NCBI GenBank assembly: GCA_016182235.1
Contig: JACOXT010000004.1
Location: forward strand, 28,537 to 92,536
Origin: Candidatus Levyibacteriota bacterium
GTDB taxonomy: Bacteria; Patescibacteriota; Microgenomatia; Levybacterales; UBA12049
Direction of reading: 5' to 3'
DNA length: 64,000 bases
The notes beneath the pieces were generated by a model. It worked only from the letters and a program-made list of their open reading frames with translations. It was not told the DNA's origin and did no database searches. Positions 4,599-25,200 of the stretch are shown piece after piece. The translations under genes were made by a program, and so were the position numbers. How positions within the stretch are numbered: the stretch's first letter is position 1; each line of letters begins with the position of its first letter.

Positions 4599-5702
4599 AT
4601 GAAACTTAGTACATTAAAAACCATCCGGCAAAACTTCCTAAAAGAACTCCAAGATGCAAATATAGGCAGGAAGAATAGCCTTGCTTTTATTGTTAATGAA
4701 ATTCCCAAAATTCCTCTTGTAGAAAATGGGAAAAGATTTCAGGTTTTGGTTGTCGGAGGAAGTATTTGCAAAAAAGCAATTCTTGTTAAGAAAGATAATG
4801 AGCTTGAGGTTGTTAAGAATGAAACAGCTAAACAACCTTCTTTTAATAATGAATTAGTTTTTTTGGAATTTATAGAAAAGAATCTTGAAGACAACATTAA
4901 CATTTTGGCTTTAAATTTTGCTTATCCCCTAAAACCCATCTTTATAAATAAAAAGCTTGACGGAATCCTTATAAAAGGTTCTAAGGAAAATTCTTTTGGT
5001 AATCTTGTTGGCAGAAAGATCGGAGAGGAGATAGAAAAATATGTACTTCAAAAAAATGGCAAAAAAATAATTGTCTCTCTGGCAAACGATACTATCTGTC
5101 TTCTGCTTTCGGGATTAACAAAATTTTCATGGGATAATCTTGCCGCAGGAATTGTCGGAACAGGACTTAACTTTGCGATATTTAAAAACAAAAACAAATT
5201 GGTTAATTTGGAGTCTGCAAATTTTGATAAATTCCCAAAAACAAAGGAGACACAAATTATAGATAGAGAATCAAATAATCCCGGAGGTTGGCTTTTTGAA
5301 AAAGAAACAACAGGCGCATATCTTTATAAACATTTTAATATAATCCTAAAAGCAAAAAATCTCCCATTCTCGCCTATCAATTCGACGGAAGATCTAAATG
5401 CTTTATGCTCTAAAAATATTCCCAAGATTTCCAAAATTGCACAAGACCTTTTAAATCAATCCGCTCAATTGGTTGCTTGTCAAATAGCCGGAATAACTGC
5501 ATTCAAAAAACCCCACTTCGCTAAAGCTTCGAGGGGCAAGCAAAATATGGTTTTTGTTATGGAAGGAAGTTTGTTTTGGAAAGGAAATAATTATAAAAAA
5601 ATAGTCAAAGAAACTGTTAGAAAATTAGTACCAGAATATAAAGTTGAATTTGTAGAAATAAAACAAAGCGGTATAATGGGCGGCGCAAAACTAATATGTT
5701 AA
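4599..5702 (+). CDS. Hexokinase-family sugar kinase (actin-fold ATPase)
   Basis: Motifs LALNFAYPL, LANDTICLLLSG, GIVGTGLNFA and EGSLF resemble hexokinase_1/2 domains. It contains a GC-rich insert at 5511-5541. Confidence 0.7.
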   Translation: MKLSTLKTIRQNFLKELQDANIGRKNSLAFIVNEIPKIPLVENGKRFQVLVVGGSICKKAILVKKDNELEVVKNETAKQPSFNNELVFLEFIEKNLEDNINILALNFAYPLKPIFINKKLDGILIKGSKENSFGNLVGRKIGEEIEKYVLQKNGKKIIVSLANDTICLLLSGLTKFSWDNLAAGIVGTGLNFAIFKNKNKLVNLESANFDKFPKTKETQIIDRESNNPGGWLFEKETTGAYLYKHFNIILKAKNLPFSPINSTEDLNALCSKNIPKISKIAQDLLNQSAQLVACQIAGITAFKKPHFAKASRGKQNMVFVMEGSLFWKGNNYKKIVKETVRKLVPEYKVEFVEIKQSGIMGGAKLIC

Positions 5703-19898: not shown

Positions 19899-19936
19899 AT
19901 ATTTATAGTAGTAGACCCAAGAAAGAATTGCAATAT

Positions 19937-20785
19937 CTAAAGAGTGTGTGGCAAGTGGTGCTTGAAGGAGTTTTTGTTGGCATAATCAATAATTTTTTGC
20001 GCGTTTGGAAAACCAATTTTGGAAATTTCTGAAATAGTCATTTTTTTATCAAAATAAAGAAACAAAACATTGTCAGCCTCTTTGTATGAAAATCCAAATT
20101 CACCTTCATCGCTTTGTCCCTCCCAAAGCCCTGCGGTTGGAGGCTTGTCAATTATATTTTGTGGGATTTTAAGATATCTGGCAAGTTGATAAACTTGCGT
20201 CTTATATAGGTGCTGTATGGGTTCAAAATCAGACGCCTCATCTCCATGACGAGTGAAATATCCTAAAAGATGCTCAGATTTGTTTTCTGTTCCCGCGACA
20301 AGGCAATTGTGTTTCTTGGCAAGATCAAAAAGAATAATCATTCTTACACGAGCCATGATATTGCCGAGACGGATACGGTTCACCTCGGAGGAGTCATTTC
20401 GCAACACCTCGAAGGTGGCCGACTCGCCCGGCGAAGCCTTGGCGAAGCGGGGATGGACTCCTTCGAGGTGGGATTGGAACGCCCTCACCATAGGTTCAAT
20501 AGACAGTTCATAAATATTTTCTTTTGGAATCTTTGCTTCTTTTAAAATCGGCTCTATCTCATTAAAATAAGATTTAAAATAATAAAGATGTGCGACGAAA
20601 ATGTTTTGAGGGGCAAGAACTTCTCTCAAAAGATAAAAACTGGTTGTTGAGTCAATTCCGCCTGACATTCCTATAACAACCTTTTCAAAACCACTATCTT
20701 GCAATGTCTTTCTAATAAAGGAGGTAATTTTGTTTGTTTCGGCAAAAGGATTTATGTTAAGTAGATTGTTGTTCAATTGTTTCAT
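19937..20785 (-). CDS. nadE: NH3-dependent NAD+ synthetase
   Basis: PP-loop SGGIDS (VIGMSGGIDSTT) and the C-terminal family pattern. It carries an in-frame GC-rich palindromic insert at 20405-20470. Confidence 0.85.
   Translation of the reverse strand: MKQLNNNLLNINPFAETNKITSFIRKTLQDSGFEKVVIGMSGGIDSTTSFYLLREVLAPQNIFVAHLYYFKSYFNEIEPILKEAKIPKENIYELSIEPMVRAFQSHLEGVHPRFAKASPGESATFEVLRNDSSEVNRIRLGNIMARVRMIILFDLAKKHNCLVAGTENKSEHLLGYFTRHGDEASDFEPIQHLYKTQVYQLARYLKIPQNIIDKPPTAGLWEGQSDEGEFGFSYKEADNVLFLYFDKKMTISEISKIGFPNAQKIIDYANKNSFKHHLPHTL
20405..20470. repeat. GC-rich palindromic element, long form, inside nadE
   Basis: 11-bp inverted repeats: CACCTCGAAGG at 20405-20415 and CCTTCGAGGTG at 20460-20470. 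The core CCCGGCGAAGCCTTGGCGAAGCGGGG is at 20427-20452. GC content is far above the surroundings. Confidence 0.8.
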
Positions 20786-20825
20786 TGTTGTCGCTCGTTT
20801 CGCTCGCTCATTGTTATATTGTTAG

Positions 20826-20857
20826 CAATGGAGCAATGTAACAATGCAACAATGATA
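20826..20857. repeat. Octamer array CAATGNNN x4 in the nadE 5' leader
   Basis: CAATG starts at 20826, 20834, 20842 and 20850. On the nadE mRNA strand this reads CATTGTTG CATTGTTA CATTGCTC CATTGCTA. Confidence 0.75.
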
Positions 20858-20864
20858 GTGGAAA

Positions 20865-21524
20865 CTATAAGTATAGTTTCTTTTGTATTATATACTCTTC
20901 AATCTTTTCCGGCACGAGGACGGTTATTGACTTTCCTTCTTTAACTCTTTTTCGTACTTCAGTGGATGAGATGTTAATTGGAATGAAATGTAGCCAAATT
21001 AGCTTCCCACCTCGAAGGTGGCCGAATGGACTCCTTCGAGGTGAACGAATGTGTCTCGAAACTATTATTAATCCAAACTTTTCTATTATTTCTCTCCAGT
21101 TCTTCCATTTTTTAAAATCTTTTATATTATCAGAACCGATTATCCAAAAGAAATGGTCACTTGGAGATTGTTTTTGCAAAGTTTTTAGAGTGTCAATAGA
21201 ATAACTCGTTGATTGTTTTCTAAGTTCTAGATCAGAGACTTCTATGTCTCTTTCGTCATTCTGGCTTGTCCAGAATCTCTTATTGCCGCTAGGGATTCTG
21301 GAGTCGCTCCGCTCCCCAGAATGACGTTTATAAAGTTCATTTGCTAGTAATTTTGCCATTTCGAGTCTGTGGCGAGAGATTGACATTTTTTTAGCAAAAG
21401 GGTGAATTCTCGCAGGCATCAGTATTACTTTTTGGATTATTTGAGATTTCAAAAGACATCTGGCAATTGCTAAATGACCATTGTGCGGGGGATCAAAGCT
21501 GCTACCCAAAATAGCGGTGTTCAT
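20865..21524 (-). CDS. nadD: Nicotinate-nucleotide adenylyltransferase
   Basis: GSSFDPPHNGHLAIA (HxGH motif) and ISSTEVR (the ISST motif). It contains two in-frame palindromic inserts. Confidence 0.85.
   Translation of the reverse strand: MNTAILGSSFDPPHNGHLAIARCLLKSQIIQKVILMPARIHPFAKKMSISRHRLEMAKLLANELYKRHSGERSDSRIPSGNKRFWTSQNDERDIEVSDLELRKQSTSYSIDTLKTLQKQSPSDHFFWIIGSDNIKDFKKWKNWREIIEKFGLIIVSRHIRSPRRSPFGHLRGGKLIWLHFIPINISSTEVRKRVKEGKSITVLVPEKIEEYIIQKKLYL
21008..21043. repeat. GC-rich palindromic element, short form, inside nadD
   Basis: It has the same 11-bp arms as the nadE element (CACCTCGAAGG 21008-21018, CCTTCGAGGTG 21033-21043) with a 14-nt loop. Confidence 0.8.
21254..21326. repeat. 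Nested palindromic element (CGTCATTCTGG ... CCAGAATGACG) inside nadD
   Basis: The outer 11-bp inverted repeats are at 21254-21264 and 21316-21326. Inner sub-hairpins include CTGGCTTGTCCAG. It is translated in frame as HSGERSDSRIPSGNKRFWTSQNDE. Confidence 0.75.
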
Positions 21525-21583
21525 GGTTTGTGCTTATTTTAACCCGTTTGGCCAATATTGGCAAGACGAAACAAGTTTAAAAT

Positions 21584-21646
21584 AATAGACGGTAGAAGAT
21601 GGAGGATAGAAGGTGGTATTTTGAAGATAGAAGATTGAGGATAGAC
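21584..21646. repeat. Purine-rich heptamer array (9 units), left arm flanking the four-helix-bundle ORF
   Basis: The units are AATAGAC GGTAGAA GATGGAG GATAGAA GGTGGTA TTTTGAA GATAGAA GATTGAG GATAGAC. Confidence 0.85.
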
Positions 21647-21648
21647 TA

Positions 21649-22011
21649 CTAAAAGGTTTTCCAGTTGTTTCGAAGATTAGTAAGTTTTCCTCCTAATAAC
21701 AGGTATCTATTGATAAGGTCGTTGCAAAAATTCTTTTCCCAAAAAACTAAATCTCTTGCCAAGCTGATATGGACTTCCATTTCATTACAAGATCCAATTG
21801 CTGAATCTAAATGCAGCTTGAATTGTTTATCAAATCTTCTTTTTGCCCAACCTTCTGCAATATTTGCAGGAACAGATTTAGAGGCTTTTCTTAACTGCAA
21901 GCCAAGGTCATTCCTTTCAAATAGGGGAAGTTTATTAACATTTCTATTAACTGTAAGAGCTAATTCGTAGGCTTCTTTATACACTTCCAAATCTCTAAAG
22001 CTCTTGATCAT
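21649..22011 (-). CDS. Four-helix-bundle protein (23S rRNA intervening-sequence protein family)
   Basis: 120 aa. FRDLEVYKEAYELALTV and ANIAEGWAKR motifs are typical of this family. Confidence 0.8.
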   Translation of the reverse strand: MIKSFRDLEVYKEAYELALTVNRNVNKLPLFERNDLGLQLRKASKSVPANIAEGWAKRRFDKQFKLHLDSAIGSCNEMEVHISLARDLVFWEKNFCNDLINRYLLLGGKLTNLRNNWKTF

Positions 22012-22026
22012 AAATAGAGTTTATAG

Positions 22027-22089
22027 TTTCTACCTTCCATCTTCAACCCTCAAAGTACTATCTTCTACCTTCTACTTTCTATCGTCTAA
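22027..22089. repeat. Pyrimidine-rich heptamer array (9 units), right arm, inverted relative to 21584-21646
   Basis: The units are TTTCTAC CTTCCAT CTTCAAC CCTCAAA GTACTAT CTTCTAC CTTCTAC TTTCTAT CGTCTAA. The reverse complement aligns unit by unit with the left arm at roughly 75% identity. Confidence 0.85.
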
Positions 22090-22202
22090 TCTCTGTCAGG
22101 TTCGCGGTCAGAAAAAAGTCAAGCTATTTAAGGAGTTTGGGAGTAGACTGCGGGCCATGATCCTTCGACAAGCTCAGGATCATACTGAACGGAGTTGAAC
22201 GT

Positions 22203-25200
22203 ATGAAACAGGAATTATTGAACCAAACCTTGACAAGCCCACCTCAAACACCCTATTCTAGGGATGGAGCTATTTTTATGGAGGTAGTGAAAGATATGCC
22301 TAATTCCGCAAACCAACCCAAAAACCCAGAGAGAACAGAAAATAGGCCTTTAGATAAAGTAAGGGTAGAAGTAAACAACACATCCAAAAAAGAAGAAACT
22401 TCTTCAAAATCTCCCCAGTCAGTTTCCGAAGAAAAGAAGGGGTCTCCTGTCGAAGCAAAAATTACAAAAGTCGATTCTAAAAAAATAGATAATGAGGAGT
22501 TAAGAAAAGAATGGCATAAAGTATTTACACCAGAAGAGTTAAAAAATCCCGATACAAGATCAACTATAGAATTAGCTATCAAACTGGGCTATAGTCCTGA
22601 GAGCATTACATCAAAAGGCCCATTGGAATTTAAAGCAAAAGATGTTATCGCAAATGCTTTACTTGATGATCAACAGCGCATTGAGAAGGCTGAAGAACTG
22701 CTTGGGCGATCTTTGTCAATAAAACAACGAGAATTACTTCTGAAAGCACACTATGCATCAAAAGGTAAGACTGGTAAAGATGGTCGTGGGGCAGGAGTGT
22801 TCAATTTAGAAAGAAAACAACTTGCAGAAGAAGCAAGGATACTTAGTAACGAAGAAGGTTTTACTGACAAAGAAAGACGTATACTTATTGAAGCTGGTCT
22901 AGCAGCAACTCTTATTCCTAATATCTATACGGATCCCACTTTGCAACTTATTGCCGAACAATACATTAATGAGGTAAACCGTATAAATGCAACTAATCCA
23001 AGTGAACATGTAGACCCCAATTTTCTCATTCGACTAATGACTGATGTTGAAAGACGAGCTCGTGACGGCCTAGTAGACAGAACGCAAGCACTAAATCTAC
23101 TAAATGAATTTCAAACCATATTTGCTGATGAGAATCCTGCTCAAGGAGAGAGCCCTTTGACTAGAGAGATTAATCTAATCAAAGGTCTGCAAGGACAAGA
23201 CAGAAGGGATGCATTACTTAATTTATTGAGGGCTTATCCTCCCCTGAGTGCTCCTTTACCGCACGAAATTATAGAATTAACAATGGAGGATGATGAATCC
23301 TTTGAATCCTTAGTCAATAGAATTGTTTCTCTTCCACTTGACAAAGAGACCTCTGACTATACTCTCGGACTCTATGGCTCAGGAAATCTTGAAACGATTA
23401 GCGATGCACTTACTCAAAAATTAGATACTGAGACAGATCCCGATGAGAGAGATAGACTTAGTAGGTTAAAAGATAGATTTAATCTGGCTACAGAATCATT
23501 TACTTTAACCCACAATATGAATACTCGAATAGTCACTGGAGAAATACAGGAATTTATTCGTACCGCGGAAAGAATTCTACCCCCTCATCTTAATTATCTT
23601 CAAAAATTAAACGGTGTAAGCGAAGCGATGAGAATTTATGAAGAAACCTATGATAGATATCTTGCAAAGTATGGATGGATGTATCCTTTTGCATCAGTAC
23701 TATTGCATTACGAAGTTTTCAGCAAGCTAAGAGAACTAAATGATGCGGGGGGGCTTGGCGTAGCAAAGGCAATGGATGGGGAACTAAGATTAATAAAACT
23801 GGAAGAGTGGGAGTTAAGAAGAGCATATAATATAGCAAGAAAATTTTATAACAATACATTTAGATCATCAGAAAAAGTTGCTACCGGGACAGTCCCTCGC
23901 AATATGGAAGGTGAGGAGAGACAGGAAATATTGGCAGAAATCCAAGACGCGATAGATTCAGGAAACACAAATAAAGAGGCTTTACTTAGAAATGAACTGG
24001 CTGACGCTGAAGAAAGGGGACAATCTAGGTATTCTTCTTTTGCGTTAGAATCAGCTGCCAGAATTATGAATCCAATACAGCTTCTTATATATCGTTTTCA
24101 AATAGCGGGTGAGGAACATGGATTGGTTTTCCTTAAAAAAGCAAAAGAGTACTATCTAGAATTTTTGAGACATAACTATAAACTTGGAATAAATAAAATA
24201 ACCACTCTTGGTGGGGTAAACGTTGAAGAGATGGAGGTTGGAGGAGTATTTGGGGTTTCAGGATTCTATAGTTCATGGAGAACAGAAAATATCGCCATAA
24301 GCCAGATGAAAGTTAATATTGGTGGACAGGAATTAACAATAAGAAGATGGTTAGCGGAAACTACATATGAAATTGAACAAGCTAATACGGCATTCAAAGA
24401 TGCAGGGCAGAATAGACAGTTAAAGCATAACGCGCAAGTACAATTAGCTGATGCCCTAAAGCCCCTTATTGATAATGTTCATGTTGGATTAGGCATGTTG
24501 TTAAGACAGCCAGCTTTTGGTGGTGAAATAGGTTATGAAGCAAGAAAGTTACTATGGGAGAAAATTGTGAAAGGAAATGATCCAGCAAACAATAATCCAA
24601 GGGAAGGAAATCTAGATGTAGCAATAAACTATTTAACAAAGTTAAAAATTCAGGATGGAAGTATAAGATCACTAGAAGAAATTAAATCAAGTGGTGGAAA
24701 TTATTGGGACGTTCCTTCAGGAGACCCATTGACGACTCCATGGGAAATACTGAGAAGAAAAATTCTTTTGCAACATCAGAAAAATATTAGGAAATCGTTT
24801 GATACTAATGTCAATTTAATTCCTGATCAAGATTTTGATGCAAATGAAACTCGTTTAATACTTACAATTAAAGAAGAAGGCAGAAAGCTCGCTCAACATC
24901 TGGCCGACATATCATTTCCATATGTACCCTTCATGAATGACGCGCCTTTCGAAATTTTTGATTATACGCTGGCAGGAGACGAGGTTTATAGAAGAAGGGC
25001 AGGAGGAGATATACCTAGCTATTTTGAAGGGTCTAACGCGTTTGTGGCTATTGTTGATAATCCTGGCGGAATTGGTGATGAAAAAGCAATGGAGAATTTC
25101 CTTAAGCTTGAAAGAGGAGTTGAATCTCCTCAAGGACGACCAGATGCCCAAAGAAGAACATACCCACTTTTTAAAGCTTGGCTAGAATGGGTAATGACCA

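Follow-up and report, generated by a model that had tools for sequence, protein, structure and literature searches.

Why do two adjacent essential genes, nadE and nadD, carry copies of one GC-rich palindrome in the middle of their coding sequences, and does the additional sequence end up in the proteins? The question is raised by a stretch of 64,000 nucleotides from an uncultured groundwater bacterium of Candidatus Levyibacteriota (assembly GCA_016182235.1, contig JACOXT010000004.1, positions 28,537 to 92,536), analyzed here as a whole, referred to as the window, and numbered from its first nucleotide. Our analysis indicates that the palindromes are, most probably, copies of one selfish GC-rich hairpin repeat family of AT-rich Microgenomates (Candidatus Levybacteria, Daviesbacteria and relatives), which would be translated together with their host genes and tolerated where they fall in permissive loops.

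The repeat unit, which we call family A, measures 36 bp and consists of CACCTCGAAGG, a loop of 14 nt and CCTTCGAGGTG, the arms being perfectly complementary over 11 bp (and at 88% over 16 nt). This is the form found in nadD, with arms at 21008-21018 and 21033-21043, while in nadE the same arms (20405-20415 and 20460-20470) enclose a loop of 44 nt. The two copies are identical over 18 + 18 nt (20405-20422 equals 21008-21025, and 20453-20470 equals 21026-21043), so that the nadD copy corresponds to the nadE copy minus an internal piece of 30 nt (20423-20452). Since the nadE orthologue of a related locus (L007) carries exactly the bare 36-nt unit at the position of the 66 nt of the window, the long form is a 36-nt unit with a piece inserted into its hairpin loop, and the comparison of the two nadE genes reveals insertion junctions without duplication. 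The nested piece belongs to a second family (B), which is absent from the otherwise identical 36-nt copies in nadE of L007 and in nadD of the window. A second family B copy lies in a hexokinase-like open reading frame (ORF) of the window (Table 1), and a peptide of this type (PHFAKASRGK) also occurs in NadD orthologue P0132. The fold of family B is not significant (z -0.6), and it is a repeat with no convincing hairpin.

With lengths of 66 and 36 nt, the elements keep the frame in both genes. They are read in different frames, as HLEG...TFEV in nadE and PRR...HLRGG in nadD, and the peptides encoded by the inserts include AFQSHLEGVHPR and SPFGHLR; the family A unit contains no stop codon in any of the six frames. 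A degenerate additional half-copy of family A adjoins the nadE copy, its half-arm (20378-20401) being 88% complementary to 21023-21046 and 93% to 20456-20470. Most Levybacteria orthologues have this half-arm, the corresponding DSSEVNR arm being shared by nadE of five related loci (L001, L003, L005, L006 and L007) and absent from that of L008. Both full copies are predicted to form strong RNA folds, with -34.3 kcal/mol (z -4.4) in nadE and -21 kcal/mol (z -5.1) in nadD. The arms pair CACCTC with GAGGTG (21008-21013 with 21038-21043), that is, the anti-Shine-Dalgarno core of 16S rRNA with its complement, which may be a coincidence of six letters.

nadD also harbors a third palindrome, of a further family (C), which is in frame, has perfect 11-nt arms and folds with -27.1 kcal/mol (z -3.1); its peptide includes …HSGERSDSRIPSGNKRFWTSQNDE…. 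It represents a net insertion of approximately 29 residues and is absent at its site in all 23 aligned NadD orthologues. Family C-type peptides were found at the other NadD site in P0150 and at the NadE site in P0042, and a search of the window with the family C arm gave nothing further beyond chance, leaving a single copy there. When the window was scanned for perfect hairpins (arms of at least 10 nt, GC content of at least 50%, loop of at most 70 nt), only three were recovered, namely the two family A copies and this family C palindrome. The arms of family A, too, occur well above chance: the 11-mer arm has five matches in the window with at most one mismatch, all within this 660-bp stretch (0.41 expected from shuffled sequences, none of 100 of which reached five), and the looser core CACCTNNNAGG has seven, again all in the same stretch, versus 0.95 expected. 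The window itself is AT-rich (37.6% GC), with a GC island of 100 nt at 20390-20489 that reaches 64%.

Pfam detects only host domains in nadE and nadD (Table 1), both products are 100% identical to Ca. Levybacteria records (for nadE, that of a NAD(+) synthase), and the closest solved relatives of the nadD product are nicotinate-nucleotide (NaMN) adenylyltransferases such as PDB 1kam. The original prediction, made from the letters of this DNA, thus holds in much of its description: the hosts are recognizable, the arm sequences, coordinates and loops of 44 and 14 nt are exact, both copies are coding and in frame with peptides that are true translations, and the 18 + 18 identical nucleotides establish one element family in both genes. 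Its interpretation of the nadE copy as a long form of the element has to be given up in favor of a short form with an unrelated 30-bp repeat nested in the loop. To its account we add the half-arm, the separate status of the 30-nt element, the 73-nt palindrome of nadD and the different frames of the two copies.

Family A is dispersed over many unrelated genes. A scan of 185,579 species (one genome each) for exact arms separated by 14-44 nt returned 65 loci, a number in which diverged copies, including most of those in Levybacteria, are under-counted because exact arms were required. Approximately 15 of the 65 come from Streptomyces and other high-GC genomes; their interiors are unrelated, and we excluded them as palindromes that probably arose by chance in GC-rich coding DNA. 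The low-GC (0.33-0.48) metagenome-assembled genomes (MAGs) of Daviesbacteria, Microgenomates and Patescibacteria account for 46 copies, with at most seven loci per genome. About three quarters of these sampled copies are intragenic: 34 lie inside ORFs that extend, in one frame and with no stop, over 40 codons or more to either side, and the other 12 are found at gene ends or in intergenic DNA. None of the 46 has long ORFs on both sides in different frames. According to NCBIfam profiles, the hosts include PheT, release factor 1 (RF1), AspRS, a RluA-family synthase, RadA, a GT4 glycosyltransferase, an Obg-like GTPase, mevalonate kinase and Rpe, to which PurL can be added by eye only. The termini of 11-13 bp, CACCTCGAAGG(TG)/(CA)CCTTCGAGGTG, are kept across variants of 36, 40 and 55-58 nt with different interiors, a constancy that fits repeated nesting in the loop.

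Even the complete unit recurs without change. The exact 36-mer was retrieved from 12 contigs in a metagenome scan, representing seven distinct sites (nadE, MiaA, Tgt, a Mur ligase, a PMT-like membrane protein, a position upstream of a tsaD-like gene recognized by eye, and one unassigned), and thus approximately ten sites are known when nadD of the window and loci L017 and L074 are included. Positions upstream of two genes are among them, and the identical 36-mer is read in four of its six frames (HLEGGRMDSFEV, HLEGVHSATFEV, SPRRSPFGHLRGG and TPRRWPNGLLRGG). To judge from further motif clusters in the flanks of the sampled loci, those genomes would have approximately one copy per 15 kb, versus one per 32 kb in the window.

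Two observations concern the genomes of this sample. Several loci (L010, L011, L016, L017, L022, L027, L030, L032, L036, L037 and others) stem from low-GC MAGs titled 'uncultured Gammaproteobacteria ... binchicken', which carry a nadE of Levybacteria type. Their RF1, PurL, AspRS, RadA, GT4 and prepilin-peptidase proteins are 59-73% identical to orthologues labeled as Daviesbacteria or Microgenomates, so the gammaproteobacterial label of these MAGs is almost certainly wrong. In Daviesbacteria locus L065, an ORF of 1694 aa of surface type contains a family A copy together with two segments that look intein-like by eye (C[VQ]TGDT…/…HN motifs).

Orthologues with empty sites allow the gain in length to be evaluated. 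Compared with palindrome-free orthologues, NadE of the window is longer by approximately 19-25 residues: the site comprises 8-14 residues in P0013, P0034, P0081 and P0065, versus 33 in the window. The gain is approximately 24 residues relative to the solved enzyme of P. horikoshii, whose structure aligns on either side of a gap at query residues 109-132, the insert mapping between residues 95 and 96 of PDB 2e18. Locus L008 provides an empty nadE site at the DNA level, and is devoid of the element in nadD as well. At the site of the short nadD copy, palindrome-free orthologues have 18-30 residues between conserved flanks, versus 22 in the window; the copy is unquestionably present as a DNA element but, judging from these alignments, appears to replace variable-loop sequence with no added length. 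MiaA is a further host for which filled, nested and empty states could be compared, and here filled and empty versions differ by only some six residues.

The NadE site turns out to be hypervariable across Microgenomates, with zero, one, two, three or more family A units, in tandem or nested, recognizable by their HLEG/HLRG/HLGG ... SEV/FEV peptides and, in the DNA, by CACCTNNNAGG motifs. In other lineages it contains entirely different repeat-derived peptides, and, depending on the genome, families A, B, C and others are found at the two NadD sites. That the same loops accommodate several families points to a selective filter on permissive loops more than to site-specific targeting.

[quoted passage not shown] It was too narrow in presenting coding insertion as peculiar to two adjacent essential genes, as the phenomenon is general in this bacterial group and both loops host other families elsewhere. 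The claim of an insertion in both genes is right for nadE, where the insert corresponds to a gap against the solved enzyme, and fails for the short nadD site, where orthologues lacking the palindrome have loops of equivalent length.

Are the inserts translated? AlphaFold models of NadE and NadD have overall predicted local distance difference test (pLDDT) values of 85.8 and 86.1. In NadE, values below 50 are restricted to residues 1-6 and 112-130, the latter between the helices 97-104 and 131-158; in NadD, they fall below 50 at residues 74-90, the family C insert, and amount to 65-74 at residues 160-180, the coil of the short-form site. The models, which are predictions and no proof of surface exposure, thus place the nadE insert and the family C insert of nadD in very-low-confidence loops, and the short nadD site in a region of reduced confidence, within folds that are otherwise predicted with confidence. 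That the frame is kept without exception, by each of the 34 intragenic copies and by every variant among the orthologues, is expected if selection acts on a translated insert, and would not be needed for excision or bypass. The elements are therefore most likely transcribed and translated with the gene and not excised. To the question of whether they are removed or simply sit in surface loops, which had been left standing by the original prediction, the frame, the low-pLDDT loops and the lack of Rfam matches (none at E ≤1 in window positions 19900-22250) suggest the latter as the favored answer.

We propose the following scenario. As the unit has no stops in six frames, an in-frame copy in a gene would only add residues, about 12 hydrophilic ones for a single unit and more for tandem or nested arrangements. 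Copies would persist where the peptide falls in a permissive surface loop, and selection would purge those that break the frame or the structure. The NadE loop before the RLGN helix and the two NadD loops would be such permissive sites, repeatedly colonized by family A and others; in this genome, such colonization would have left the 30-bp repeat nested in the hairpin loop of the nadE copy and the 73-bp palindrome of a third family in nadD. As to the mobilizing enzyme, the absence of target duplications and the nesting in hairpin loops lead us to guess at a hairpin-recognizing single-strand transposase (HUH/Y1, of the RAYT, that is, REP-associated tyrosine transposase, or IS200/IS605 type).

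Several observations weigh against this interpretation. No transposase or autonomous partner turned up, although no search was aimed at them, and no target-site duplication was found, the flanks of the 46 low-GC copies having no common repeated motif. A near-identical pair of filled and empty sites was not found either, the nearest empty MiaA sharing 75% protein identity, with junctions that cannot be aligned. The short nadD site and MiaA display little or no net gain in length (-8 to +6 residues), and these data fit replacement or later trimming better than simple insertion. For the translation of the inserts, we infer it only from the preserved frame. The clustering is also striking: in the window and seven of nine orthologous loci (L001-L009), family A occurs only in nadE and nadD, with one match elsewhere in L005 and none in L008, and permissive loops only partly explain why three hairpins from two families gather in these two genes. 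Finally, the element is more conserved than its hosts. Orthologues share 67-80% identity with the window in the nadE coding DNA flanking the element, while the 36-mer is identical at 36 of 36 positions in several orthologues and in unrelated genes. In nadD of L007, the loop has lost 1 nt, which puts the second half into another frame (SPRRSPSATFEV versus SPRRSPFGHLRGG) with both arms intact. Such identity of DNA despite a changing peptide fits recent spread or gene conversion among copies, but could also reflect selection on the DNA or RNA itself.

Because hosts whose DNA differs by 20-30% contain identical 36-mers, with the peptide frame free to change, one may ask whether the repeats are maintained at the nucleic-acid level across Microgenomates, beyond tolerated junk, as hairpin sites or through replacement-type spread. 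We consider this unlikely, though not negligible. If true, the first version would imply phylum-wide sites in mRNAs or genes for some protein or for the ribosome (given the anti-Shine-Dalgarno-like CACCTC and Shine-Dalgarno-like GAGGTG), and the second a templated patch that overwrites loop-coding DNA, which would give very small genomes an inherent means of diversifying surface loops.

It is improbable, in our view, that the hairpins are functional nucleic-acid elements that regulate or diversify their hosts, nadD-nadE especially, as sites for protein binding or processing, ribosome pausing, mRNA stability or recombination. The strong folds of both copies would be expected of such elements, as would the identity of the 36-mer amid diverged flanks and the retention of the arms when the peptide frame changes; nadD and nadE, moreover, hold each of the three perfect GC-rich hairpins seen in the window as well as nearly every motif match of the orthologous loci, and the arms contain what may be an anti-Shine-Dalgarno core and its complement. 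Yet the same 36-mer resides in the unrelated MiaA, Tgt, Mur ligase and PMT-like genes and in intergenic DNA, copy number ranges from none to three or more per site among orthologues with L008 lacking the element in both genes, unrelated repeat families occupy the same loops in other lineages, there is no Rfam family match in this region, and the high identity is explained equally well by recent spread or gene conversion. A NAD-specific regulatory RNA, which the clustering in nadD and nadE had brought to mind, was rejected in view of the identical unit in unrelated genes and the lack of an Rfam match.

The number of tandem and nested copies varies at the same site, no more than 600 bp separate the identical copies of nadD and nadE, and family A is confined to these genes within the window; the palindromes could therefore have arisen in place by slippage, duplication and gene conversion between nadD and nadE, as a locus-specific hypervariable region and not as a mobile family. 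As the identical 36-mer and the exact arms recur at dozens of unrelated loci from many genomes, this origin is highly improbable: local expansion probably adds to the changes in copy number, but it cannot explain the dispersal.

We regard it as very unlikely, too, that the inserts are removed before the mature protein, whether by RNA splicing or processing, by programmed translational bypass (as in T4 gene 60 and the byps of yeast mitochondria) or by protein splicing. The inserts form stable hairpins and are predicted to be disordered, and in Magnusiomyces mitochondria bypass acts on GC-rich hairpin inserts located in AT-rich genes (PMC5009743); yet all 34 intragenic copies and every orthologue variant are in frame, with no in-frame stops, which would be needless if they were removed, while byps disrupt the frame in 12 of 15 genes (PMC5009743). 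At 12-29 residues, the inserts are also far below the size of inteins and have no Hint domain, and elements of 36-66 nt with no Rfam match are not group I or II introns. We reject the intein, intron and bypass readings on the grounds of size, frame and the lack of stops.

If the palindromes are indeed selfish, translated repeats, selfish DNA inside coding genes, for which Rickettsia is the classical case, would be common in the Candidate Phyla Radiation (CPR) as well, and would reach core genes such as those for aminoacyl-tRNA synthetases, release factor 1, RadA, MiaA, NadD and NadE (and, by eye only, PurL). Many of the lineage-specific insertions in CPR proteins, and of their odd peptides of low complexity, would then have an explanation, and such segments should be annotated as repeat-derived and not be taken as functional motifs. 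In organisms that cannot be cultured, the elements could also be used as markers to type strains and to trace recent DNA mobility. As these very small genomes have few recognizable transposases, the movement of a 36-bp hairpin needs explaining.

The coordinates of the elements and of neighboring features are compiled in Table 1.

Table 1. Repeat elements, host genes and neighboring features in the 64-kb window
Feature	Position	Strand	Description
nadE	19937-20785	-	NH3-dependent NAD+ synthetase, 282 aa; Pfam NAD_synthase 6e-62
Family A half-copy, degenerate	20378-20401	.	GTTCACCTCGGAGGAGTCATTTCG; read as SSEVN beside the conserved RLGN motif
Family A composite copy, in nadE	20405-20470	.	66 nt; left and right parts of 18 nt each around a nested insert of 30 nt; read as HLEGVHPRFAKASPGESATFEV
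Family B element, in nadE	20423-20452	-	30 nt, CCCCGCTTCGCCAAGGCTTCGCCGGGCGAG; peptide PRFAKASPGE; nested in the family A loop
Family B, second copy	5511-5540		CCCCACTTCGCTAAAGCTTCGAGGGGCAAG; peptide PHFAKASRGK; 24/30 identical; inside hexokinase-like ORF 4599-5702
nadD	20865-21524	-	Nicotinate-nucleotide adenylyltransferase, 219 aa; Pfam CTP_transf_like 1e-18
Family A unit form, in nadD	21008-21043	.	36 nt; read as (S)PRRSPFGHLRGG
Family C palindrome, in nadD	21254-21326	.	73 nt; CGTCATTCTGG...CCAGAATGACG with inner CCAGAATC/GATTCTGG pair; read as RHSGERSDSRIPSGNKRFWTSQND
CAATG-rich palindrome, AT-rich	20808-20855		nadD-nadE intergenic; 17-nt arms, 88% complementary
23S rRNA-intervening-sequence-protein gene	21649-22011		Pfam 23S_rRNA_IVP
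Small palindrome	22150-22190		ATGATCCT...AGGATCAT; directly upstream of 1099-aa ORF starting at 22203
GC-rich segment	27205-27285		81 nt, 62% GC; between the start of a minus-strand 540-aa ORF and a tRNA-Ser gene

Other repeats surround the two genes. The CAATG-rich palindrome between nadD and nadE probably belongs to another family, intergenic in the window and coding elsewhere: a sequence resembling it is seemingly coding (…NNETMQQ…) in the NadE hot spot of P0009, P0031 and P0059, and seems to form an N-terminal extension (MVNNATIEQFNNEA…) in P0006 and P0021. The 23S_rRNA_IVP gene is flanked by imperfect inverted repeats of 54 nt (70% complementary), the whole extending from 21585 to 22082, and looks like a mobile cassette. 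In orthologous loci, genes of this type vary in place (before nadD, between nadD and nadE, or duplicated); several copies per locus adjoin genes resembling type IV secretion system (T4SS) pilins, and some also match bAvd. The fold of the small palindrome upstream of the 1099-aa ORF is not significant (z -0.3), and it may be a decayed repeat of yet another family. Finally, the GC-rich segment next to the tRNA-Ser gene folds into two hairpins within a closing GAGAGGG/CCCUCU stem (z -2.8 for the plus strand, z -3.7 for the minus strand), with a U-run after it on the plus strand; it has no credible Rfam match and may be an unannotated small RNA, leader or terminator.

How does family A compare with known systems? 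The closest parallel is provided by the Rickettsia palindromic elements (RPEs), in-frame elements of approximately 100-150 bp in several families that are translated as additional segments of the host proteins (Ogata et al., 2000, as summarized in PMC10969869 and PMC3733652); 44 insertions, of about 150 bp, are given for R. conorii (PMC10969869). Both systems involve several families of fold-compatible palindromes, located in frame in many unrelated and intact housekeeping ORFs of small AT-rich genomes. Family A differs by its units of 36-66 bp and its patescibacterial hosts, a distinction drawn from size and phylum. Intragenic REPs of the GTAG/CGTC type, found in several bacteria, are stem-loops of 20-40 bp; frequently arranged as dimers or clusters that encode 20-30 residues, they occur in known housekeeping proteins, among them DNA repair enzymes and tRNA synthetases (Di Nocera et al., 2013; PMC3733652), and REPs are thought to be mobilized by tyrosine (RAYT) transposases without target duplication (PMC3733652). 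The 36-nt stem-loop of family A falls within this size class. It lacks the GTAG/CGTC tag, however, having CACC.../...GGTG ends in the window and in all 46 low-GC copies (a CGTC start was seen only in the unrelated family C palindrome), and it is mainly intragenic (34 of 46) and of moderate copy number, at approximately one per 15-30 kb of sampled DNA, whereas REPs are mainly extragenic and high-copy. With MITEs it shares terminal inverted repeats, here of 11-13 bp, but its units of 36-66 bp are shorter than the 70-300 bp of MITEs, whose ends match those of a related autonomous IS (PMC3733652).

A functional analogy exists with the GC clusters of yeast mitochondria, mobile GC-rich palindromes of 30-80 bp that comprise several classes, often form tandem arrays and alter the size of the VAR1/rps3 product (PMC4464245). 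Like them, family A consists of GC-rich palindromes in an AT-rich genome, with two or three tandem or nested copies inside a protein gene, but the GC clusters are mitochondrial, mostly intergenic, of unrelated consensus, and affect one protein gene instead of many. The bypass inserts of T4 gene 60 and the Magnusiomyces byps (PMC5009743) are likewise short, GC-rich or hairpin-forming inserts in coding sequences of AT-rich genomes; they break the frame and are skipped by the ribosome, while ORFs run continuously, with no stops, through all family A copies. Family A thus works like these elements and is a member of no named family. In the full-text literature we found no description of such elements in CPR or Patescibacteria, a paper on RubisCO insertions (PMC5113843) being unrelated. 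The best account of family A is that it adds a new family, from a new phylum, to the already known selfish and translated palindromic repeats, the principle of which will come as no surprise to the specialist.

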